A DNA stretch of 13,805 nucleotides from a virus (lineage: Duplodnaviria; Heunggongvirae; Uroviricota; Caudoviricetes). Under the pieces are notes generated by a model that was given only the letters and a program-made list of their open reading frames with translations, did no database searches and was not told the DNA's origin. The first letter of the stretch is position 1. Every line of letters starts with the position of its first letter. Of the stretch, positions 2,190-12,483 are shown in pieces. The position numbers and the translations under genes were made by a program. Where the stretch lies: IMG/VR virus record IMGVR_UViG_2703718840_000009, positions 1 to 13,805 of that record; one strand, 5' to 3'.

Positions 2190-2400
2190 GGACAAAAACA
2201 GAGAAAGGAAACGACAGAGGCCAAAAAGCTCGCTTTCAGCACCTGTCGTTTCCTTTCTTTTCAGAGGGTATTTTAAATAAAAACATTAAGTTATGACGAA
2301 GAAGAACGGAAACGCCTTAAACCGGAAATTTTTCATAAATAGCGAAAACCCGCGAGGTCGCCGCCCCGTAACCTGTCGGATCACCGGAAAGGACCCGTAA
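2190..2400 (-). other. cos: Annealed cos site (cosB-cosN-cosQ); 12-nt cohesive-end sequence at about 2355-2366
   Basis: Plus strand 2341-2366 (agcgaaaacccgcgaggtcgccgccc) is the reverse complement of the lambda left end GGGCGGCGACCTCGCGGGTTTTCGCT. It is followed directly by cgtaacctgtcgg, the reverse complement of the lambda right end. Confidence 0.85.
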
Positions 2401-2565
2401 AGTGATAATGATTATCATCTACATATCACAACGTGCGTGGAGGCCATCAAACCACGTCAAATAATCAATTATGACGCAGGTATCGTATTAATTGATCTGC
2501 ATCAACTTAACGTAAAAACAACTTCAGACAATACAAATCAGCGACACTGAATACGGGGCAACCTC

Positions 2566-2760
2566 ATGTCAACGAAGAACAGAACCCGCAGAACAACAAC
2601 CCGCAACATCCGCTTTCCTAACCAAATGATTGAACAAATTAACATCGCTCTTGAGCAAAAAGGGTCCGGGAATTTCTCAGCCTGGGTCATTGAAGCCTGC
2701 CGTCGGAGACTAACGTCAGAAAAGAGAGCATATACATCAATTAAAAGTGATGAAGAATGA
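2566..2760 (+). CDS. Hypothetical small protein with a possible ribbon-helix-helix (Arc/CopG-like) fold
   Basis: 64-aa ORF starting in right-end lambda sequence (catgaggttgccccg). Basic N-terminus then a strand-helix-helix pattern (RNIRFPNQMIEQINIALEQKGSGNFSAWVIEACRRRL). No convincing RBS seen. Confidence 0.35.
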   Translation: MSTKNRTRRTTTRNIRFPNQMIEQINIALEQKGSGNFSAWVIEACRRRLTSEKRAYTSIKSDEE

Positions 2761-2924
2761 ACATCCCGCGTTCTTCCCTCCGAACAGGACGATATTGTAA
2801 ATTCACTTAATTACGAGGGCATTGCAGTAATTGAGTTGCAGTTTTACCACTTTCCTGACAGTGACAGACTGCGTGTTGGCTCTGTCACAGACTAAATAGT
2901 TTGAATGATTAGCAGTTATGGTGA

Positions 2925-3131
2925 TCAGTCAACCACCAGGGAATAATCCTTCATATTATTATCGTGCTTCACCAACGCTGCCTCAATTGCTCTGAATGCT
3001 TCCAGAGACACCTTATGTTCTATACATGCAATTACAACATCAGGGTAACTCATAGAAATGGTGCTATTAAGCATATTTTTTACACGAATCAGATCCACGG
3101 AGGGATCATCAGCAGATTGTTCTTTATTCAT
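2925..3131 (-). CDS. Hypothetical 68-aa protein of the lambda right arm
   Basis: ORF in a visibly AT-rich block at the position of a small ORF I recall near the lambda right end. Confidence 0.5.
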
Positions 3132-3293
3132 TTTGTCGCTCCATGCGCTTGCTCTTCATCTAGCGGTTAAAATATTACTTCAAATCTTTCTGTATGAAGA
3201 TTTGAGCACGTTGGCCTTACATACATCTGTCGGTTGTATTTCCCTCCAGAATGCCAGCAGGACCGCACTTTGTTAAGCAACCAATACTATTAA

Positions 3294-3827
3294 GTGAAAA
3301 CATTCCTAATATTTGACATAAATCATCAACAAAACACAAGGAGGTCAGACCAGATTGAAACGATAAAAACGATAATGCAAACTACGCGCCCTCGTATCAC
3401 ATGGAAGGTTTTACCAATGGCTCAGGTTGCCATTTTTAAAGAAATATTCGATCAAGTGCGAAAAGATTTAGACTGTGAATTGTTTTATTCTGAACTAAAA
3501 CGTCACAACGTCTCACATTATATTTACTATCTAGCCACAGATAATATTCACATCGTGTTAGAAAACGATAACACCGTGTTAATAAAAGGACTTAAAAAGG
3601 TTGTAAATGTTAAATTCTCAAGAAACACGCATCTTATAGAAACGTCCTATGATAGGTTGAAATCAAGAGAAATCACATTTCAGCAATACAGGGAAAATCT
3701 TGCTAAAGCAGGAGTTTTCCGATGGGTTACAAATATCCATGAACATAAAAGATATTACTATACCTTTGATAATTCATTACTATTTACTGAGAGCATTCAG
3801 AACACTACACAAATCTTTCCACGCTAA
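3294..3827 (+). CDS. Hypothetical 177-aa protein of the lambda right arm (true start may be an internal Met)
   Basis: Long ORF in the AT-rich block between cos and bor; an aggaggt RBS-like motif lies inside the 5' end, suggesting a later start. Confidence 0.5.
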
Positions 3828-4116
3828 ATCATAACGTCCGGTTTCTTCCGTGTCAGCACCGGGGCGTTGGCATAATGCAATACGTGTACGCGCTAAACCC
3901 TGTGTGCATCGTTTTAATTATTCCCGGACACTCCCGCAGAGAAGTTCCCCGTCAGGGCTGTGGACATAGTTAATCCGGGAATACAATGACGATTCATCGC
4001 ACCTGACATACATTAATAAATATTAACAATATGAAATTTCAACTCATTGTTTAGGGTTTGTTTAATTTTCTACACATACGATTCTGCGAACTTCAAAAAG
4101 CATCGGGAATAACACC

Positions 4117-4410
4117 ATGAAAAAAATGCTACTCGCTACTGCGCTGGCCCTGCTTATTACAGGATGTGCTCAACAGACGTTTACTGTTCAAAACAAACCG
4201 GCAGCAGTAGCACCAAAGGAAACCATCACCCATCATTTCTTCGTTTCTGGAATTGGGCAGAAGAAAACTGTCGATGCAGCCAAAATTTGTGGCGGCGCAG
4301 AAAATGTTGTTAAAACAGAAACCCAGCAAACATTCGTAAATGGATTGCTCGGTTTTATTACTTTAGGCATTTATACTCCGCTGGAAGCGCGTGTGTATTG
4401 CTCACAATAA
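4117..4410 (+). CDS. bor: Bor lipoprotein (serum-resistance, Iss-like)
   Basis: 97-aa ORF with signal peptide and lipobox (MKKMLLATALALLITGCAQQ), matching lambda Bor from memory. Opposite orientation to the lysis genes, as in lambda. Confidence 0.9.
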   Translation: MKKMLLATALALLITGCAQQTFTVQNKPAAVAPKETITHHFFVSGIGQKKTVDAAKICGGAENVVKTETQQTFVNGLLGFITLGIYTPLEARVYCSQ

Positions 4411-4441
4411 TTGCATGAGTTGCCCATCGATATGGGCAACT

Positions 4442-4903
4442 CTATCTGCACTGCTCATTAATATACTTCTGGGTTCCTTCCAGTTGTTTTTGCATAGTGA
4501 TCAGCCTCTCTCTGAGGGTGAAATAATCCCGTTCAGCGGTGTCTGCCAGTCGGGGGGAGGCTGCATTATCCACGCCGGAGGCGGTGGTGGCTTCACGCAC
4601 TGACTGACAGACTGCTTTGATGTGCAACCGACGACGACCAGCGGCAACATCATCACGCAGAGCATCATTTTCAGCTTTAGCATCAGCTAACTCCTTCGTG
4701 TATTTTGCATCGAGCGCAGCAACATCACGCTGACGCATCTGCATGTCAGTAATTGCCGCGTTCGCCAGCTTCAGTTCTCTGGCATTTTTGTCGCGCTGGG
4801 CTTTGTAGGTAATGGCGTTATCACGGTAATGATTAACAGCCCATGACAGGCAGACGATGATGCAGATAACCAGAGCGGAGATAATCGCGGTGACTCTGCT
4901 CAT
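4442..4903 (-). CDS. Rz: Spanin inner-membrane subunit Rz
   Basis: 153-aa ORF with N-terminal TM segment and coiled-coil body; matches lambda Rz from memory. Confidence 0.9.
4501..4683 (-). CDS. Rz1: Spanin outer-membrane lipoprotein Rz1, nested in the +1 frame of Rz
   Basis: 60-aa ORF inside Rz with lipobox (VVVGCTS) and a proline-rich stretch ([15 protein letters not shown]). Confidence 0.85.
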
Positions 4904-5376
4904 ACATCAATCTCTCTGACCGTTCCGCCCGCTTCTTTGAATTTTGCAATCAGGCTGTCAGCCTTATGCTCGAACTGACCATAACCAGCGCCCGGCAGTG
5001 AAGCCCAGATATTGCTGCAACGGTCGATTGCCTGACGGATATCACCACGATCAATCATAGGTAAAGCGCCACGCTCCTTAATCTGCTGCAATGCCACAGC
5101 GTCCTGACTTTTCGGAGAGAAGTCTTTCAGGCCAAGCTGCTTGCGGTAGGCATCCCACCAACGGGAAAGAAGCTGGTAGCGTCCGGCGCCTGTTGATTTG
5201 AGTTTTGGGTTTAGCGTGACAAGTTTGCGAGGGTGATCGGAGTAATCAGTGAATAGCTCTCCGCCTACAATGACGTCATAACCATGATTTCTGGTTTTCT
5301 GACGTCCGTTATCAGTTCCCTCCGACCACGCCAGCATATCGAGGAACGCCTTACGTTGATTATTGATTTCTACCAT
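4900..5376 (-). CDS. R: Endolysin R (lytic transglycosylase)
   Basis: 158-aa ORF ([35 protein letters not shown]...) matches lambda R from memory; overlaps the Rz start. Confidence 0.95.
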
Positions 5377-5683
5377 CTTCTACTCCGGCTTTTTTAGCAG
5401 CGAAGCGTTTGATAAGCGAACCAATCGAGTCAGTACCGATGTAGCCGATAAACACGCTCGTTATATAAGCGAGATTGCTACTTAGTCCGGCGAAGTCGAG
5501 AAGGTCACGAATGAACCAGGCGATAATGGCGCACATCGTTGCGTCGATTACTGTTTTTGTAAACGCACCGCCATTATATCTGCCGCGAAGGTACGCCATT
5601 GCAAACGCAAGGATTGCCCCGATGCCTTGTTCCTTTGCCGCGAGAATGGCGGCCAACAGGTCATGTTTTTCTGGCATCTTCAT
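5360..5683 (-). CDS. S: Holin/antiholin S (S107/S105 dual start)
   Basis: 107-aa ORF beginning [32 protein letters not shown] with the Met1-Lys2-Met3 dual-start motif and three TM segments. Confidence 0.95.
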
Positions 5684-6088
5684 GTCTTACCCCCAATAAG
5701 GGGATTTGCTCTATTTAATTAGGAATAAGGTCGATTACTGATAGAACAAATCCAGGCTACTGTGTTTAGTAATCAGATTTGTTCGTGACCGATATGCACG
5801 GGCAAAACGGCAGGAGGTTGTTAGCGCGACCTCCTGCCACCCGCTTTCACGAAGGTCATGTGTAAAAGGCCGCAGCGTAACTATTACTAATGAATTCAGG
5901 ACAGACAGTGGCTACGGCTCAGTTTGGGTTGTGCTGTTGCTGGGCGGCGATGACGCCTGTACGCATTTGGTGATCCGGTTCTGCTTCCGGTATTCGCTTA
6001 ATTCAGCACAACGGAAAGAGCACTGGCTAACCAGGCTCGCCGACTCTTCACGATTATCGACTCAATGCTCTTACCTGTTGTGCAGATA

Positions 6089-6145
6089 TAAAAAATCCCG
6101 AAACCGTTATGCAGGCTCTAACTATTACCTGCGAACTGTTTCGGG
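6089..6145 (-). terminator. tR' intrinsic terminator of the 6S transcript
   Basis: On the minus strand, cccgaaac ... gtttcggg stem followed by a U-run (reverse complement of plus-strand 6089-6145). Confidence 0.7.
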
Positions 6146-6282
6146 ATTGCATTTTGCAGACCTCTCTGCCTGCGATGGTTGGAGTTCCAGACGATACGTC
6201 GAAGTGACCAACTAGGCGGAATCGGTAGTAAGCGCCGCCTCTTTTCATCTCACTACCACAACGAGCGAATTAACCCATCGTT
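6089..6282 (-). ncRNA. Lambda 6S RNA (short pR' transcript terminated at tR')
   Basis: Interval between the inferred pR' start and tR'; the sequence matches the lambda pR'-tR' region from memory. The TSS position is approximate. Confidence 0.55.
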
Positions 6283-6320
6283 GAGTCAAATTTACCCAAT
6301 TTTATTCAATAAGTCAATAT
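6283..6320 (-). promoter_or_regulatory. Late promoter pR' with overlapping qut site
   Basis: Minus strand reads TTGACT (-35), 17-nt spacer, TAAATT (-10), as in lambda (ttgacttattgaataaaattgggtaaatttgactcaacgatgg). Confidence 0.65.
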
Positions 6321-6359
6321 CATGCCGTTAATATGTTACCATCCGTGGCAATCATGCTG

Positions 6360-6752
6360 CTAACGTGTGACCGCATTCAAAATGTTGTCTGCGATTGACT
6401 CTTCTTTGTGGCATTGCACCACCAGAGCGTCATACAGCGGCTTAACAGTGCGTGACCAGGTGGGTTGGGTAAGGTTTGGGATTAGCATCGTCACAGCGCG
6501 ATATGCTGCGCTTGCTGGCATCCTTGAATAGCCGACGCCTTTGCATCTTCCGCACTCTTTCTCGACAACTCTCCCCCACAGCTCTGTTTTGGCAATATCA
6601 ACCGCACGGCCTGTACCATGGCAATCTCTGCATCTTGCCCCCGGCGTCGCGGCACTACGGCAATAATCCGCATAAGCGAATGTTGCGAGCACTTGCAGTA
6701 CCTTTGCCTTAGTATTTCCTTCAAGCTTTGCCACACCACGGTATTTCCCCGA
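6360..6752 (-). pseudogene. Q: Antiterminator Q, C-terminal fragment only (~130 codons)
   Basis: C-terminus (SGKYRGVAKLEGNTKAKVLQ ... HKEESIADNILNAVTR) matches lambda Q. The ORF-track extension to 7019 is antisense to bet/exo, so the Q N-terminus is absent. Confidence 0.8.
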
Positions 6753-6948
6753 TAACGATGAAACCATGCAGGAGATTAACACTCTGCTGATCGCCCTGGA
6801 TAAAACATGGGATGACGACTTATTGCCGCTCTGTTCCCAGATATTTCGCCGCGACATTCGTGCATCGTCAGAACTGACACAGGCCGAAGCAGTGAAAGCT
6901 CTTGGATTCCTGAAACAAAAAGCCACTGAGCAGAAGGTGGCAGCATGA
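6748..6948 (+). pseudogene. bet: Bet single-strand annealing protein, C-terminal ~66-codon remnant
   Basis: Reads (PD)[64 protein letters not shown], the lambda Bet C-terminus; stop overlaps the exo start (ATGA). Confidence 0.8.
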
Positions 6949-7625
6949 CACCGGACATTATCCTGCAGCGTACCGGGATCGACGTGAGAGCTGTCGAACA
7001 GGGGGATGATGCATGGCACAAATTACGGCTCGGCGTCATCACCGCTTCAGAAGTTCACAACGTGATAGCAAAGCCCCGCTCAGGAAAGAAGTGGCCTGAC
7101 ATGAAAATGTCCTACTTCCACACCCTGCTTGCCGAGGTTTGCACCGGTGTGGCTCCGGAAGTTAACGCTAAAGCACTGGCCTGGGGAAAACAGTACGAGA
7201 ACGACGCCAGAACCCTGTTTGAGTTCACTTCCGGCGTGAATGTTATTGAATCCCCGATCATCTATCGCGACGAAAGTATGCGTACCGCCTGCTCTCCCGA
7301 TGGTTTATGCAGTGACGGCAATGGCCTTGAGCTGAAATGCCCGTTTACCTCCCGGGATTTCATGAAGTTCCGGCTCGGTGGTTTCGAGGCCATAAAATCG
7401 GCTTACATGGCCCAGGTGCAGTACAGCATGTGGGTGACACGAAAAGATGCCTGGTACTTTGCCAACTATGACCCACGTATGAAGCGTGAAGGACTGCATT
7501 ATGTCGTGGTTGAGCGGGATGAAAAGTACATGGCGAGTTTTGACGAGATGGTGCCGGAGTTCATCGAAAAAATGGACGAGGCACTGGCTGAAATTGGTTT
7601 TGTATTTGGGGAGCAATGGCGATGA
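6945..7625 (+). CDS. exo: Lambda exonuclease (Red alpha)
   Basis: 226-aa ORF ([40 protein letters not shown]...) matches lambda Exo from memory. Confidence 0.95.
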
Positions 7626-7804
7626 AGCATCCTCACGATAATATCCGGGTAGGTGCGATCACTTTCGTCTACTCCGTTACAAAGCGAGGCTGGGTATTTC
7701 CCGGCCTTTCTGTTATCAGAAATCCCCTGAAAGCACAGCGGCTGGCTGAGGAGATAAATAATAAACGGGGAGCTGTATGCACAAAGCATCTCCCGTTGAG
7801 TTAA
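7616..7804 (+). CDS. Small hypothetical protein (lambda orf60a-like); start may be the ATG at 7622
   Basis: Small ORF immediately after exo, overlapping its stop, as in the lambda pL operon. Confidence 0.6.
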
Positions 7805-7968
7805 GAACGAGTATCGAGATGGCACATAGCCTCGCTCAAATTGGAGTCAGGTTTGTGCCAATACCAGTAGAAACAGACGAAGAATTTCATACGTTAGCCG
7901 CATCCCTTTCACAAAAGCTGGAAATGATGGTGGCGAAAGCAGAAGCAGATGAGAGAGACCAGGTATGA
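7777..7968 (+). CDS. Small hypothetical protein (lambda orf63-like)
   Basis: 63-aa ORF overlapping the neighbouring ORFs, in the same order as lambda. Confidence 0.6.
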   Translation: MHKASPVELRTSIEMAHSLAQIGVRFVPIPVETDEEFHTLAASLSQKLEMMVAKAEADERDQV

Positions 7969-8044
7969 CAACCACTGAATGTATTTTTCTGGCAGCGGGC
8001 TTCATATTCTGTGTGCTTATGCTTGCCGACATGGGGCTTGTTCA

Positions 8045-8260
8045 ATGACACCTCAGCAAGAAAACGCCCTTCGCAGCATTGCCCGTCAGGCTAATTCTGA
8101 AATCAAAAAAGCCAGACAGCAGTTTCCGGATAAAAACGTCGATGACATTTGCCGTAGCGTACTGAAGAAGCACCGCGAAACGGTAACGCTGATGGGATTC
8201 ACACCGACTCATTTAAGCCTGGCAATCGGCATGTTAAACGGCGTCTTTAAGGAACGATGA
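8045..8260 (+). CDS. Small hypothetical protein (lambda orf61-region); ORF track extends it upstream to 7979
   Basis: Internal ATG at 8045 gives MTPQQENALRSIARQANSEIKKARQQFPDKNVDD...; no recognisable domain. Confidence 0.45.
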   Translation: MTPQQENALRSIARQANSEIKKARQQFPDKNVDDICRSVLKKHRETVTLMGFTPTHLSLAIGMLNGVFKER

Positions 8261-8358
8261 ACATGAAAAGCAAAATTATCAGGGAGCTACAGGCTCCTTT
8301 TTTATTGCTCGCATTTACCCCCAAGCGTATTAACCAACAATTCAGGGATTAATGGAAG

Positions 8359-8580
8359 ATGGCAGACATCATTGATTCAGCATCAGAAATTGAAGAATTA
8401 CAGCGCAACACAGCAATAAAAATGCGCCGCCTGAACCACCAGGCTGTATCTGCCACTCATTGTTGTGAGTGTGGCGATCCCATAGATGAGCTAAGACGCC
8501 TGGCCGTTCAGGGTTGTCGGACTTGTGCAAGTTGCCAGGAAGATCTGGAGCTTATCAGTAAACAGAGAGGTTCGAAGTGA
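8359..8580 (+). CDS. TraR/DksA-family C4 zinc-finger protein (lambda Orf73-like)
   Basis: 73-aa ORF with CxxC-(17)-CxxC (HCCECGDPIDELRRLAVQGCRTCASC), resembling F-plasmid TraR. Stop overlaps the next ORF start (GTGA). Confidence 0.8.
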   Translation: MADIIDSASEIEELQRNTAIKMRRLNHQAVSATHCCECGDPIDELRRLAVQGCRTCASCQEDLELISKQRGSK

Positions 8581-8990
8581 GCGTAATTCACTCTCAGGCA
8601 CTGCGTGAAGCGGCAGAGCAGGCAATGCCTGACAACTGGGGATTTGACGCGGACCTTTTCCATGAGCTGGTAACACCATCGATTGTGCTGACACTGCTGG
8701 ATGAACGGGAAAGAAACCAGCAATACATCAAACGCCGCGACCAGGAGAACGAGGATATTGCGCTAACGGTGGGGAAACTGCGTGTTGAGCTGGAGACAGC
8801 AAAAATCAAAACTCAACGAGCAGCGTGAGTAGAAGGTGTTATCTCGGATGGAAGTAAGCGTATTGCTGAACTGGAGGCCTGGGTTGAATACACAAGAGCT
8901 GCATACGTAAGAGCAAAAGACAAGGGAGATTTGATCAGAGTTATTACCCGCCAACCAACGGGATTTTACGCTTACGTACCATGTAATTAG
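8577..8990 (+). pseudogene. ea22: ea22-like ORF interrupted by an in-frame TGA at 8826-8828 (83 codons, stop, then 53 open codons)
   Basis: N-terminus MSVIHSQALREAAEQAMPDNWGFDADLFHELVTPSIVL resembles lambda Ea22 (from memory, uncertain). After the TGA the same frame reads VEGVISDGSKRIAELEAWVEYTRAAYVRAKDKGDLIRVITRQPTGFYAYVPCN to TAG at 8988-8990. Confidence 0.5.
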
Positions 8991-9126
8991 GAATCCTTGA
9001 AGTGGCAGCCTAACTGCGGATACACTGAAATGGCGATTTGGTAACATGTTTCGCACAAGGCTGTTACTACACTTAGAGATAATCAGCCATGATTAAACGC
9101 TTTGTAAAAAGTAAAAGGAAATTACA

Positions 9127-9741
9127 ATGAAAAAATCAATACTAATTTTAGGGCTTACGTTAATTGTCTCATCTCAAATACCATCGGCAATGGCAAAAAA
9201 TGAATCAAAACTATGGGTTGTTGTTGATCGAACGGAAAGACATACCTGCCCTTCAAGTAAATGTGGAGTGGCTGGGAAACTATTTTTCAGGGAAGGCGTA
9301 GATTTTCTAGAAAAAAAAGGTGAATGGGTTCGTATAACTGAGCCATATTCAGCCTCATGTGTTGGAGGGGAAAGCGAATATATTAAAGAAGGTAATAAAT
9401 CCTGCACAAGAAAAAATGGAATCGTTAATGGCAAGTTTTCAGAATGGGTTAAACTTAGTGATCTTAGCAGTGAAAGGCCATCAGATCCTGCTGAAAATGC
9501 GAGCGGAGATGATACTTTAATCAAAGGATCTGATGACTACCGTATATACAAAAAAGAGTTTTCTTCGGCAGCTAGGAAGTTAATAAATGAAGGGGTCTGC
9601 ACGGAAAGCGATTTTAAGGAAATCGGAGGGTGGATGGCATCAAGCAATAAGGGTGAAAACATCTATTTCACATATTGCGGAGGAATGACGTTGTCGAACA
9701 GAATATATCTAGACGTTAAAAGTGGAAAGACTTTTAGATAA
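9127..9741 (+). CDS. Hypothetical secreted protein with a possible bacterial SH3-like N-terminal domain (non-lambda)
   Basis: 204-aa ORF with RBS aagga ~8 nt upstream and a signal peptide (MKKSILILGLTLIVSSQIPSAMA). Visibly AT-rich, several Cys, followed by a terminator hairpin. Confidence 0.8.
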   Translation: MKKSILILGLTLIVSSQIPSAMAKNESKLWVVVDRTERHTCPSSKCGVAGKLFFREGVDFLEKKGEWVRITEPYSASCVGGESEYIKEGNKSCTRKNGIVNGKFSEWVKLSDLSSERPSDPAENASGDDTLIKGSDDYRIYKKEFSSAARKLINEGVCTESDFKEIGGWMASSNKGENIYFTYCGGMTLSNRIYLDVKSGKTFR

Positions 9742-9812
9742 TATGATATTACCAATGACAGCATTAATTTAATGCCTCCATAGAATTATCTCCAGGAAGT
9801 AAGTATAAGAAA

Positions 9813-9850
9813 AGCCCGCACAATGAGCTGCTGCGGGCTTTGTGTTATTC
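9813..9850 (+). terminator. Putative intrinsic terminator after the secreted-protein gene
   Basis: Stem agcccgca / tgcgggct with ~11-nt loop, followed by a T-rich tract (ttgtgttatt). Confidence 0.55.
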
Positions 9851-10034
9851 GCCATATTTTATGAAGCAAATACGACACTATAGATAATTAAGCGTTACTG
9901 GTTGTCGATTCCTCACTCATTCCTGCTGATGGCTGTCTTCTTGTATGTGCCATTGAAGGGTAATATCGCGTAAAAAGATACCGGAAGTATCCGCGCCGCC
10001 ATGATTGTCTTTCTCCTGATGCAGGAAAAGCAGA

Positions 10035-10373
10035 ATGACTAGATCAGCAGCAGAGCGCAAAGCCGATCAGAGAGCCAAGCAAGCATCATCCGGTATGCGT
10101 AAGCTGGAGCTTGTACTTGATGCTCAGGAAATTGAAATGCTGGAGCGTAACTGAGCCACGCGCCGCTTCAGGCGTGCGCCTTACGAGTTTGGTGAGTACA
10201 TAGCATTACTGAGCCGCCAGGATGATGCACGTGTGCGCTGGCGTATAAAATCGATTAGCAGAAAACGTTGCCGTAAGTGCGGCGAGAGAGTTCCTGTTAA
10301 TTCATGCCCGTGTAATGGTGACTCACAATACTGGGTGACCAAAGGCTGGCACGAAACAAAATTAATGATATAA
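10035..10373 (+). pseudogene. Zinc-ribbon small ORF (possible Ea8.5 counterpart) split by an in-frame TGA at 10152-10154
   Basis: ATG at 10035 with RBS aggaaaag gives 39 aa (MTRSAAERKADQRAKQASSGMRKLELVLDAQEIEMLERN). After the TGA the same frame stays open to TAA at 10371-10373 and contains CRKCGERVPVNSCPC; a GTG at 10233 could restart it. Confidence 0.4.
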
Positions 10374-10401
10374 ATCTCTGTGACATGTCACGGAGGCGGC
10401 A

Positions 10402-10830
10402 ATGAAATTAGACCAGCAATATCTAAAAGATCTACTTATCGCATTCGAAAAAACTTATGGCCCTGACACGATGCTTAGTGAACTAGAGGATAATGGCTTT
10501 AATAGATATGACCAAAATTTTATTTTCCATATGCGATTATTATGTGACTACGAATTAATAGTTAGGGTTGATGGAAAACCAGGGTTCGGTCATATAATGT
10601 CCAACGAGTTAGGGGAAGGTGTTGAATATAGTTGGATCGAAGTACCACTGAGGTTGACAGCAAGAGGGCATGATTTTATTGCTGACTTACGTCAAAAGGA
10701 GGTCTGGCAAGCTATAAAAACAAACTTTAAGGATGAGGGAATTAGTACTCTTATGAGTGTTTCAAAATCACTAGCAAAAGTCTTTGCAAGGAAAAAAATA
10801 AAAGATATTACAGGAATAGATATTGAATAA
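10402..10830 (+). CDS. Hypothetical 142-aa protein, no signal peptide (non-lambda)
   Basis: Strong RBS ggagg 5 nt upstream; visibly AT-rich; preceded by a 12-bp palindrome and followed by a terminator hairpin at about 10877-10900. Confidence 0.75.
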   Translation: MKLDQQYLKDLLIAFEKTYGPDTMLSELEDNGFNRYDQNFIFHMRLLCDYELIVRVDGKPGFGHIMSNELGEGVEYSWIEVPLRLTARGHDFIADLRQKEVWQAIKTNFKDEGISTLMSVSKSLAKVFARKKIKDITGIDIE

Positions 10831-10876
10831 TTCTTAGCATCAAGCAACTACTGCCTTTGGTGAAAATTATATCTGA

Positions 10877-10900
10877 ACTCGCTACGGCGAGTTTTGTTTT
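10877..10900 (+). terminator. Putative intrinsic terminator after the 142-aa gene
   Basis: 6-bp stem actcgc / gcgagt with loop tacg, followed by tttgtttt. Confidence 0.55.
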
Positions 10901-10913
10901 ACGGAGATGATAA

Positions 10914-11081
10914 ATGCACTTCAGAGTCACTGGTGAATGGAATGGAGAACCATTCAACAGAGTTATCTAAGCAGAGAACATCAATGACTGCTATGACAAC
11001 TGGATGATATGGGCGCAGATAGCACATGCAGACATAACCAATATTCGAATTGAAGAACTGAAAGAACACCAAGCCGCCTGA
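10914..11081 (+). pseudogene. Small ORF upstream of xis (lambda orf55-position) interrupted by an in-frame TAA at 10968-10970
   Basis: Reads MHFRVTGEWNGEPFNRVI, TAA, then AENINDCYDNWMIWAQIAHADITNIRIEELKEHQAA to TGA at 11079-11081. The 168-nt span fits the 55-codon lambda ORF I recall at this position. Confidence 0.4.
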
Positions 11082-11120
11082 TGGCGGTTTTTTCTTGCGT
11101 GTAATTGCGGAGACTTTGCG

Positions 11121-11339
11121 ATGTACTTGACACTTCAGGAGTGGAACGCTCGCCAGCGACGCCCAAGAAGCCTTGAAACAGTTCGTCGATGGGTGCGCGA
11201 ATGCAGGATATTCCCTCCTCCGGTTAAGGATGGAAGAGAGTATCTGTTCCACGAATCAGCGGTAAAGGTTGACTTAAATCGACCAGTAACAGGTAGCCTT
11301 TTGAAGAGGATCAGAAATGGGAAGAAGGCGAAGTCATGA
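11121..11339 (+). CDS. xis: Excisionase Xis
   Basis: 72-aa ORF (MYLTLQEWNARQRRPRSLETVRRWVRECRIFPPPVKDGREYLFHESAVKVDLN...) matches lambda Xis; 3' end overlaps int. Confidence 0.95.
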   Translation: MYLTLQEWNARQRRPRSLETVRRWVRECRIFPPPVKDGREYLFHESAVKVDLNRPVTGSLLKRIRNGKKAKS

Positions 11340-12387
11340 GCGCCGGGATTTACCCCCTAACCTTTATATAAGAAACAATGGATATTACTGCTACAGGGAC
11401 CCAAGGACGGGTAAAGAGTTTGGATTAGGCAGAGACAGGCGAATCGCAATCACTGAAGCTATACAGGCCAACATTGAGTTATTTTCAGGACACAAACACA
11501 AGCCTCTGACAGCGAGAATCAACAGTGATAATTCCGTTACGTTACATTCATGGCTTGATCGCTACGAAAAAATCCTGGCCAGCAGAGGAATCAAGCAGAA
11601 GACACTCATAAATTACATGAGCAAAATTAAAGCAATAAGGAGGGGTCTGCCTGATGCTCCACTTGAAGACATCACCACAAAAGAAATTGCGGCAATGCTC
11701 AATGGATACATAGACGAGGGCAAGGCGGCGTCAGCCAAGTTAATCAGATCAACACTGAGCGATGCATTCCGAGAGGCAATAGCTGAAGGCCATATAACAA
11801 CAAACCCTGTCGCTGCCACTCGCGCAGCAAAATCAGAGGTAAGGAGATCAAGACTTACGGCTGACGAATACCTGAAAATTTATCAAGCAGCAGAATCATC
11901 ACCATGTTGGCTCAGACTTGCAATGGAACTGGCTGTTGTTACCGGGCAACGAGTTGGTGATTTATGCGAAATGAAGTGGTCTGATATCGTAGATGGATAT
12001 CTTTATGTCGAGCAAAGCAAAACAGGCGTAAAAATTGCCATCCCAACAGCATTGCATGTTGATGCTCTCGGAATATCAATGAAGGAAACACTTGATAAAT
12101 GCAAAGAGATTCTTGGCGGAGAAACCATAATTGCATCTACTCGTCGCGAACCGCTTTCATCCGGCACAGTATCAAGGTATTTTATGCGCGCACGAAAAGC
12201 ATCAGGTCTTTCCTTCGAAGGGGATCCGCCTACCTTTCACGAGTTGCGCAGTTTGTCTGCAAGACTCTATGAGAAGCAGATAAGCGATAAGTTTGCTCAA
12301 CATCTTCTCGGGCATAAGTCGGACACCATGGCATCACAGTATCGTGATGACAGAGGCAGGGAGTGGGACAAAATTGAAATCAAATAA
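11317..12387 (+). CDS. int: Integrase Int (tyrosine recombinase)
   Basis: 356-aa ORF (MGRRRSHERRDLPPNLYIRNNGYYCYRDPRTGKEFGLGRDRRIAITEAIQ...) matches lambda Int over its full length. Confidence 0.97.
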   Translation: MGRRRSHERRDLPPNLYIRNNGYYCYRDPRTGKEFGLGRDRRIAITEAIQANIELFSGHKHKPLTARINSDNSVTLHSWLDRYEKILASRGIKQKTLINYMSKIKAIRRGLPDAPLEDITTKEIAAMLNGYIDEGKAASAKLIRSTLSDAFREAIAEGHITTNPVAATRAAKSEVRRSRLTADEYLKIYQAAESSPCWLRLAMELAVVTGQRVGDLCEMKWSDIVDGYLYVEQSKTGVKIAIPTALHVDALGISMKETLDKCKEILGGETIIASTRREPLSSGTVSRYFMRARKASGLSFEGDPPTFHELRSLSARLYEKQISDKFAQHLLGHKSDTMASQYRDDRGREWDKIEIK

Positions 12388-12483
12388 TGATTTTATTTTG
12401 ACTGATAGTGACCTGTTCGTTGCAACAAATTGATAAGCAATGCTTTTTTATAATGCCAACTTAGTATAAAAAAGCAGGCTTCA
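12388..12483. other. attL: attL junction: phage P' arm with Int arm-type sites, 15-bp core (about 12461-12475), then bacterial arm
   Basis: Reverse complement reads tgaagcct-GCTTTTTTATACTAA-gttggcattataaaaaagcattgcttatcaatttgttgcaacgaacaggtcactatcagtcaaaataaaatca: bacterial-side sequence, lambda core, then lambda P' arm. Confidence 0.88.

Follow-up and report, generated by a model that had tools for sequence, protein, structure and literature searches.

The exo-xis region of phage lambda, whose genes influence lysogenisation and induction (PMC3824215, PMC7093339), contains the pro-lysogenic gene ea22, a member of the Ead/Ea22-like family (PF13935) with a mosaic layout and a swappable C-terminal domain (PMC10834534, PMC7093339); viable ea22 deletion mutants of both lambda and Phi24B are in use (PMC7093339). 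In the same region, just upstream of xis, lies the 55-codon gene orf55 (lambdap35, NP_597778.1, phrog_676). A third relevant family, phrog_536, comprises an enterobacterial prophage protein that is labelled "transcriptional regulator", a putative function, and that is uniformly 112 aa long in Escherichia, Salmonella, Citrobacter, Klebsiella and others, with a CxxC...CxC motif.

The stretch of DNA analysed here (the window; 13,805 nucleotides of the IMG/VR record IMGVR_UViG_2703718840_000009) contains homologues of all three, each broken by a stop. The window holds a cryptic lambda-type prophage at att-lambda, adjoining ybhC in E. coli. The reading that very probably applies is that these are three ordinary pseudogenes of the non-essential exo-xis/b-region of this prophage, carried by two inherited blocks that have recombined.

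Genomic setting

Comparison with lambda by blastn shows that the remnant lacks lambda positions 880 to ~21245 and 32220 to 44115, and with them the head, tail, immunity and replication genes; bet, Q and terminase A, farther out in the window, are truncated by large deletions. None of the complete E. coli genomes has more than 82% of the window at one place, and hence the exact architecture combining the bet/Q and A/stf deletions is absent from them; the region of the three broken genes is present in full in 129-135 of them. Lambda homology ends at 8875 (lambda 30094) and restarts at 10866 (lambda 29333), with a non-lambda insert in between (Table 1).

An initial sequence-only reading had described the genes flanking the broken ones as intact. 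This stands for exo (226 aa), the orf73/TraR-like gene, the 204-aa gene, the DUF2513 gene, xis and int, all of which are open, but not for the truncated bet, Q and terminase A. Further, the orf73/TraR-like gene is open in every compared locus that includes the region, and the 204-aa gene in all 12 loci that make up the sample for the comparison of gene breakage across strains. The insert additionally contains what is left of a "DNA repair protein" gene, with A at base 9897 where relatives have G; in strains 13KWH46 and ATCC 8739, PGAP lists a pseudogene at the corresponding place. Pfam searches with the 204-aa, 112-aa and orf55 proteins returned no match; neither did PADLOC return any defence-system match for these three or the DUF2513 protein, and a defence role for the four was accordingly dropped.

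Table 1. Positions of the genes, lesions and boundaries discussed, numbered from the first letter of the window
Feature	Coordinates	Strand	Evidence or remark
orf73/TraR-like gene, intact, 73 aa	8359..8580	+	Pfam zf-dskA_traR; upstream neighbour
ea22-like pseudogene, with N-terminal and coiled-coil part of Ead/Ea22 type and variant C-terminal module	8577..8991	+	
A5 run with one inserted A (+1) compared with lambda (A4) and haplotype B	8801..8805	+	alignments
TGA within a 9-codon out-of-frame stretch of ea22	8826..8828	+	lambda here: ...CGT GAG TAT TAC...
Junction of 4-base deletion (TTAC), original ea22 frame regained	8831..8832	+	alignments
Non-lambda insert	8876..10865		replaces lambda ea22 C-terminal domain through ea8.5; blastn vs lambda
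204-aa gene, AT-rich, intact, hydrophobic N-terminal leader	9127..9741	+	phrog_8310
Recombination breakpoint interval, left (A) / right (X) haplotype blocks	9625..9707	.	strain comparison
Remnant of "DNA repair protein" gene	9895..10002	+	TTG start of relatives is TTA here
112-codon zinc-ribbon-like pseudogene	10035..10373	+	phrog_536
TGA in place of invariant Cys40 codon (TGT in intact allele)	10152..10154	+	alignment
DUF2513 gene, AT-rich, intact, 142 aa	10402..10830	+	Pfam PF10711
lambda orf55 (lambdap35) homologue, pseudogene	10914..11081	+	phrog_676; alignment to lambda, 13KWH46
TAA in place of Glu19 codon (GAA in lambda and intact alleles)	10968..10970	+	
xis, intact, 72 aa	11121-11339	+	downstream neighbour
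int, intact, 356 aa	11317-12387	+	downstream neighbour
att core GCTTTTTTATACTAA	12461-12475		3' of int, then ybhC

The three interrupted genes

The sequence-only reading had reported one in-frame stop followed by an open continuation in each of the ea22-like, zinc-ribbon and orf55 frames (TGA, TGA and TAA, respectively), and the positions are as it gave them. Alignment with lambda and close relatives, which it had proposed as a check, establishes what the sequence was before each lesion and shows that its description of a single stop per gene fits the point nonsense codons of the 112-codon gene and orf55, but not the ea22-like gene, where the stop lies between indels.

The ea22-like frame opens with GTG at 8577 and, beyond its TGA, runs through 53 open codons to a TAG at 8989-8991. 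Once repaired, its translation matches PF13935 over profile positions 2-139 of 139 (E=1.9e-28; 100.2 bits, the gathering cut-off being 27 bits), which places it in the Ead/Ea22 family. It occupies the same place after orf73/TraR as lambda ea22, has a closely similar N-terminal and coiled-coil part, with homology to lambda ea22 extending to 8875, and shares the mosaic layout. Its C-terminal module (...AELEAWVEYTRAAYVRAKDKGDLIRVITRQPTGFYAYVPCN), in contrast, shows no relationship to lambda's C-terminal domain and does not have the +GE end noted in PMC7093339. Further, unlike in lambda ea22, no unbroken frame leads through the coiled coil into the C-terminal domain, as +1 and -4 indels with the TGA between them intervene. 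The alignments show that the stop derives from these two indels and not from a substitution: a +1 slip in the run of As shifted the frame straight into the TGA, and a 4-base deletion three bases past the stop returns it, so that the rest appears open. The deletion also creates a TAG at 8830-8832 in the lambda frame.

Among complete E. coli genomes, 860 have the ea22 site and 105 records match the lesion in its exact 89-nt form; the lesion is fixed across its whole haplotype, including the deposited phage Chlobot. In haplotype B the ea22-like gene is broken differently, by two nonsense codons. Four intact homologues (P0121 and P0123-P0125) read through the stop position to an identical C-terminus, and intact proteins of 141-183 aa terminate at exactly ...YVPCN; given this shared end, the possibility that the PGAP remark "missing C-terminus" reflects truncation of the gene by the AT-rich insert was rejected. 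Two metagenome proteins (P0122 and P0181) retain the +1/-4 segment with Leu or Trp where the window has TGA. As the TGG version of the segment is not matched exactly by any of 5426 complete E. coli genomes, these were treated as rare derived variants that reach the databases via ORF-calling ascertainment, and not as restored alleles.

The frame of the 112-codon gene begins with ATG at 10035, meets TGA at codon 40 and continues open to a TAA at 10371-10373. It is collinear with phrog_536 over its full length, the intact allele matching from residue 1 to 111 (profile 2-114 of 115; E=7.3e-48), and the window differs from that allele by 13 nucleotides. The family extends across the Enterobacteriaceae, with ~390 homologues nearly all of 112 aa. 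Base 10154 is A in the window and T in the intact allele, a single transversion that turns TGT into TGA at Cys40, a residue retained in 16 of 16 aligned homologues. The stop-bearing allele has further departures from the conserved CxxC...CxC...C motif, namely G80R, which falls in the CGKC knuckle, and C99Y, so that of the conserved phrog_536 cysteines (C40, C79, C82, C91, C93 and C99) one is a stop and another Tyr; however, the intact 112-aa allele itself departs from the family at two sites that are nearly invariant, and the numbers are too low to gauge purifying selection past the UGA.

Intact versions of the gene are present in Chlobot, in strain 13KWH46 and in ~100 genomes overall, whereas PSJ-12 and others have the internal stop, its exact 89-nt context recurring in 28 complete-genome records; 410 complete E. 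coli genomes have the site. The codon-40 TGA is seen in at least three backgrounds, those of the window, of E7476/SZQ1 and of the ATCC 8739 mosaic, so that either recombination has spread it or the polymorphism is old. The SZQ1 record with the TGA allele, circular and 43 kb long, resembles a near-complete lambdoid genome; since annotated cI, cro and N are absent from it and a host gene fragment is present, it was not taken to prove that a phage with the null allele is viable.

The orf55 homologue starts with ATG at 10914, meets TAA at codon 19 and is open thereafter to TGA at 11079-11081. It matches phrog_676 over 55 of 55 positions (E=3.7e-38), is collinear with lambda 29118-29285 and lies directly upstream of xis, as in lambda, but the 55-codon frame is no longer open. 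Only 10 of 168 nucleotides differ from lambda orf55, and besides Glu19 only two other residues differ. Base 10968 is T in place of the G of the intact allele, again a single transversion (GAA to TAA). The gene is intact in lambda, Chlobot and 13KWH46, while strain E7476 has a separate nonsense codon, W9*. The exact 89-nt TAA allele is present in 8 of the 1534 complete E. coli genomes that have the gene and missing from the other 1526.

Authenticity of the stops

The sequence past each of the three stops aligns in frame and over its full length to intact proteins, and it is hence real coding sequence as opposed to a chance open frame. It is very improbable that faulty sequencing or assembly produced the stops, or that they are the natural gene ends of a parental phage lineage. 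An error could be suspected in the ea22-like gene, where the +1 falls in a run of five As (A5), the kind of homopolymer in which errors are typical; however, the lesion alleles recur in 105, 28 and 8 complete genomes that were sequenced independently, in various laboratories and on various platforms, which means that they are not sequencing errors. As for natural ends, the 83-codon ORF is effectively the end of the ea22-like gene throughout its haplotype, and the PHROGs database even holds a 40-aa family (phrog_34005) equal to the N-terminal fragment that the stop leaves of the 112-codon gene. Against this, intact homologues that extend past the stop are known for all three genes, and 112 aa is the nearly universal length in the family of the second. 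Both outcomes that the sequence-only reading had named as fatal to its proposal, natural ends and errors, are thereby contradicted.

Concordantly, in the identical DNA of strain PSJ-12, precisely these three genes carry the PGAP remark "frameshifted" or "internal stop". Their frames are broken while close relatives have intact orthologues, and the prophage lacks essential phage functions; they do not differ essentially from the PGAP-flagged pseudogenes of other cryptic lambdoid E. coli prophages. The three genes are thus ordinary pseudogenes, already annotated as such by NCBI.

Absence of recoding signals

Programmed recoding, whereby a TGA is decoded as selenocysteine or read through, is scarcely credible here. 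It would be most plausible in the 112-codon gene, whose UGA stands against the invariant Cys (C40) of its homologues, the classic signature of a selenoprotein gene, and is carried by at least 28 records in several backgrounds. Additionally, an 8-bp hairpin with a bulged U begins 6 nt past this UGA. This hairpin, with a UCA triloop and its bulge on the 3' side, is presumably unlike the E. coli fdhF SECIS, and in TGT alleles the sequence of this hairpin codes for a conserved stretch, ATRRFRRAP. An Rfam scan of 8500-11200 at a permissive E<=10 gave four chance-level matches, none of them near a stop and none a SECIS, including downstream of the 112-codon UGA. Likewise, when the 71 nt surrounding each stop are folded as RNA, they are no stabler than shuffles (z = +0.68, +1.69 and -0.69, the value at the 112-codon UGA being +0.68). 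The stop-bearing alleles of the 112-codon gene have also lost the conserved G80 and C99, the change from TGT to TGA needs only a single transversion, and the third stop, in orf55, is a TAA. Together with the PGAP flags on the identical PSJ-12 DNA, the data support the earlier view that there is no systematic read-through, and support decay of the genes with no special decoding. Translation would then end at each stop, yielding predicted fragments of 83, 39 and 18 aa.

Two haplotype blocks joined by recombination

Comparison with other strains divides the region in two. Relative to 13KWH46, the window has no differences over 8300-9707 and 53 over 9708-11201, whereas the reverse pattern is seen with KS-NP019 and CFIAFB20180540, to which the right side matches and the left does not. 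The right block diverges by 3.5% from the common allele. The ea22 lesion sits in the left block (8300-9707), which is widespread in E. coli and also found in Chlobot, while both nonsense codons, those of the 112-codon gene and orf55, sit in the right block. The lesions thus did not arise together in the remnant, their adjacency instead being a product of recombination: three consecutive genes are broken because homologous recombination between related prophages joined two blocks. This derivation of the three lesions from two recombined blocks is the sole detail that goes beyond routine annotation, and the case offers a small example of how prophage decay and inter-prophage recombination can yield a pattern-like run of broken genes.

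Decay and selected loss

Roughly 5% of the substitutions that strike these ORFs at random make stops, and with 36 substitutions between the two haplotypes in the three ORFs, ~1.8 stops are expected if they are unconstrained. Two are observed, and hence their number needs no special cause. The lesions may persist since the genes are dispensable to both lysogen and phage, and drift under relaxed selection would suffice.

The comparison of dN/dS between interrupted and intact genes, which had been suggested as a check on relaxed selection, gives the following values. Among the broken genes, the C-terminal module of ea22 has a ratio of 0.91 between two haplotypes that were broken independently, but the values between haplotypes are 0.38 for the 112-codon gene and only 0.06-0.10 for orf55; among the open genes, the values are 0.11 for the 204-aa gene and 0.56 for the DUF2513 gene. 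The low value of orf55 and the moderate one of the 112-codon gene imply that most of their divergence accumulated under constraint, with function until recently. This fits a recent loss of these two genes, and "neutral" is accordingly not demonstrated for them. Further, the sequence-only reading had envisaged that old lambda accessory genes decay while newer cargo is maintained. This division is not borne out: the zinc-ribbon-like gene lies within the non-lambda insert and so is itself cargo, and the DUF2513 gene has been independently frameshifted in strains NS-NP030 and E7476, besides having the highest dN/dS among the open genes.

The inactivation of ea22 and orf55 by two routes each could instead reflect selection for loss, the genes being costly or harmful to the lysogen, as those of the exo-xis region act on the choice between lysis and lysogeny and on host physiology, and repeated independent knock-outs being selected during domestication of the att-lambda prophage. 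The +1/-4 lesion of haplotype A and the two nonsense codons of haplotype B in the ea22-like gene, E19* in 8 records and W9* in E7476 for orf55, the spread of the 112-codon TGA allele over several backgrounds, and the strong earlier constraint on orf55 followed by sudden loss would all be in keeping with this, as would the effects of exo-xis genes on lysogenisation and induction (PMC3824215, PMC7093339). However, such adaptive loss is unlikely, given that intact alleles are in the majority, with the ~100 genomes that have an intact 112-aa allele and the 1526 of 1534 without the orf55 TAA allele; that damage is not confined to these genes, the DUF2513 gene having been broken twice too; and that the number of stops agrees with the neutral expectation.

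Under the preferred reading of ordinary decay, annotations should list the three ORFs as pseudogenes and describe the ea22 lesion as a double indel, not as a nonsense mutation; the significance beyond correct annotation is small. For functional studies of ea22, orf55 and the 112-aa phrog_536 gene, the locus nonetheless supplies naturally occurring null alleles, which could be set against the intact ones of prophages that are nearly identical elsewhere.

The three interrupted genes

Reading the sequence in all frames confirms that the ea22-like gene, the 112-codon zinc-ribbon-like gene and the orf55 homologue (lambda gene lambdap35) each contain a single in-frame stop, as the sequence-only reading had proposed, and that all the neighbours it named as intact have open frames. 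The three genes are pseudogenes in a decaying prophage, which is ordinary biology, and public annotation of identical DNA already flags them so: in E. coli PSJ-12, which is identical to the window, PGAP labels them 'frameshifted; incomplete', 'internal stop' and 'internal stop'. The sequence beyond each stop is genuinely coding. Once its frame is repaired, ea22 spans the entire Pfam Ead_Ea22 profile (E=1.9e-28); the 112-codon gene aligns with phrog_536 over its full length, and orf55 covers 55/55 positions of phrog_676.

Ea22 is a pro-lysogenic mosaic protein in which a short N-terminal part and a coiled coil are joined to a C-terminal domain that can be exchanged (PMC10834534, PMC7093339), and ea22 deletion mutants are viable in lambda and Phi24B (PMC7093339). 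The window's gene belongs to this family by its N-terminal domain, but differs from lambda ea22 in having another C-terminal module and a broken frame. Alignment with lambda reveals an additional A in an A-run and the loss of TTAC; the nine codons between these indels are out of frame and include the TGA, while in the original frame a TAG is created by the four-base deletion itself. Hence, the supposed single stop with an open continuation is a double indel, -3 overall. What follows it is a natural C-terminal module: intact proteins of 141, 161 and 183 aa, in which the junction is lambda-like (KSKLNEQREYYEG), share the end ...YVPCN. Two Ea22-like proteins from metagenome contigs (P0122 and P0181) share this +1/-4 shifted segment (IKTQRAA-x-VEG) but have Leu or Trp where the window has TGA, so that their ORFs, 137 and 182 aa long, are uninterrupted; such an allele, searched for with TGG in place of the TGA, has no exact match in 5426 complete E. 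coli genomes.

The family of the 112-codon gene, phrog_536, labelled as a putative 'transcriptional regulator', is nearly always 112 aa long across Escherichia, Salmonella, Citrobacter, Klebsiella and others, and Cys40 is kept in every aligned homologue. The intact allele has TGT at this codon (base 10154 is T) where the window has TGA. A UGA at an invariant cysteine is suggestive of selenocysteine decoding, but this is highly improbable given that a SECIS-like element is absent, conserved residues downstream of the UGA have been lost, and one transversion suffices to turn TGT into TGA. The window allele additionally carries G80R and C99Y within the CxxC...CxC...C motif. In orf55, codon 19 is GAA in lambda and the intact alleles versus TAA in the window. 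Around each of the three stops, Rfam searches return no family match, even at E<=10, and RNA folding is no better than for shuffled sequence, in agreement with the earlier view that no recoding signal is evident.

Searches of the 5426 genomes with 89-nt queries centred on each lesion recovered the ea22 +1/-4 allele exactly in 105 records (site present in 860 genomes), the 112-codon gene TGA allele in 28 (410 genomes) and the orf55 TAA allele in eight (1534 genomes). These counts rule out sequencing error. Further, the ATCC 8739-type allele, which mixes private sites with X-like and Y-like ones (X and Y being the right-hand haplotypes discussed below), also has the codon-40 TGA. One record with the TGA allele of the 112-codon gene, the circular 43,337-bp 'plasmid' pOHT76-1_1 of E. 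coli SZQ1 (NZ_CP174001.1), is the genome of a lambdoid phage, with genes for terminase, capsid, tail and lysis as well as O/P and Q, in which a truncated host diguanylate cyclase gene adjoins int; the record may stem from aberrant excision of a prophage or from misassembly.

Recombination between damaged haplotypes

At least 80% of 8300-11400 is present in 129 complete E. coli genomes, most of which, like the deposited phage Chlobot, are 98.3% identical to the window. All 53 differences between 13KWH46 and the window fall in 9708-11201, with none in 8300-9707; relatives of this type, including Chlobot, have an intact 112-aa gene and orf55 but the same +1/-4 in ea22. Conversely, KS-NP019, NS-NP030 and CFIAFB20180540 match the window in its right-hand part, both stops included, and differ from it at ~45 sites on the left, where they lack the ea22 indels and instead carry a pair of nonsense codons within the ea22 C-terminal module. 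There are thus two blocks, A or B on the left and X or Y on the right, and the window is A+X. A single tree cannot yield zero divergence in one block together with ~3% in the other, as is seen in both directions; recombination brought the ea22 lesion beside the two nonsense codons. Three broken genes stand in a row because two independently damaged haplotype blocks recombined side by side. In ea22 haplotype B (loci L005-L008, L010 and L012), the stops TAG and TGA occupy a Glu and a Trp position just past the lambda-homology boundary.

Selection and decay

The dN/dS values, which rest on small counts, are 0.06-0.10 for orf55, 0.08 for exo, 0.11 for the 204-aa gene, 0.21 for the ea22 N-terminal part, 0.38 for the 112-codon gene, 0.56 for DUF2513 and 0.91 for the ea22 C-terminal module compared between the two broken haplotypes. 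The divergence of orf55 and the 112-codon gene thus accumulated mostly under constraint, indicating that their stops are late events. A random substitution in these ORFs produces a stop about 5% of the time, and X and Y differ by 36 substitutions across the three ORFs; two stops is the number that unconstrained change would give.

The proposed contrast between decaying old lambda genes and maintained newer cargo is not supported: the 112-codon gene itself lies within the non-lambda insert, and DUF2513 is independently frameshifted at the same A-run (~10791) in NS-NP030 (+1) and E7476 (-1). E7476 also has a different orf55 stop, W9* at codon 9, an independent second lesion. The only mild interest lies in the fact that sister lineages have lost ea22 and orf55 repeatedly and independently, which could reflect selection for loss, although with 12 loci this cannot be told from drift.

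A fourth decayed gene of the stretch is a 'DNA repair protein' remnant, which Chlobot's annotation calls UmuD-like and which is marked as a pseudogene in both 13KWH46 and ATCC 8739; the window has TTA in place of its TTG start. Of the genes in the insert, the best maintained is the AT-rich (~38% GC) 204-aa gene, which encodes a hydrophobic N-terminal leader, is open in 12/12 loci and is under purifying selection; it matches phrog_8310 only, with no match in Pfam and PADLOC searches. None of the PADLOC defence models was matched by the proteins.

The prophage remnant

The window is what remains of a lambda-type prophage at att-lambda, with the att core GCTTTTTTATACTAA followed by ybhC. Deletions have removed the head, tail, immunity and replication genes, and the prophage is therefore cryptic. 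The bet/Q junction removes gam through Q-N, immunity and replication genes among them, and the exact deletion architecture, with both junctions, occurs in no complete E. coli genome of the collection. Identity to laboratory lambda is 99.93% across cos-bor-Rz-R-S-Q', versus 96.6% for exo-ea22 and 98.7% for orf55-int, a strongly mosaic relationship.

Features of the window and their lambda counterparts (segments from blastn against lambda)
Feature	Window	Lambda
Tail-fibre genes, two pieces	23-1217	22535-21245
Deletion junction, terminase A abutting tail-fibre DNA	1487-1488	880 (A side)
nu1 and start of A	1488-2366	880-1
cos, bor, Rz, R, S, C-terminal part of Q	2367-6754	48502-44115
Deletion junction, bet end fused to Q C-terminal part	6753-6754	32220/44115
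End of bet, exo, orf60a, orf63, orf61, orf73/TraR, ea22 N-terminal and coiled-coil part	6753-8875	32220-30094
ea22-like gene	8577-8991	
A-run with +1 A	8801-5	
ea22 TGA	8826-8828	
TTAC missing	after 8831	
Non-lambda insert	8876-10865	no counterpart
204-aa gene	9127-9741	
'DNA repair protein' remnant	9895-10002	
112-codon gene	10035-10373	
112-codon gene TGA	10152-10154	
orf55, xis, int, att core	10866-12475	29333-27724
Hairpin 1 (+)	10875-10894	
orf55	10914-11081	
orf55 TAA	10968-10970	
Hairpin 2 (+)	11071-11090	
att core	12461-12475	

Terminator-like hairpins, consensus-level matches only, lie on both sides of orf55, the first of them right where lambda homology restarts.
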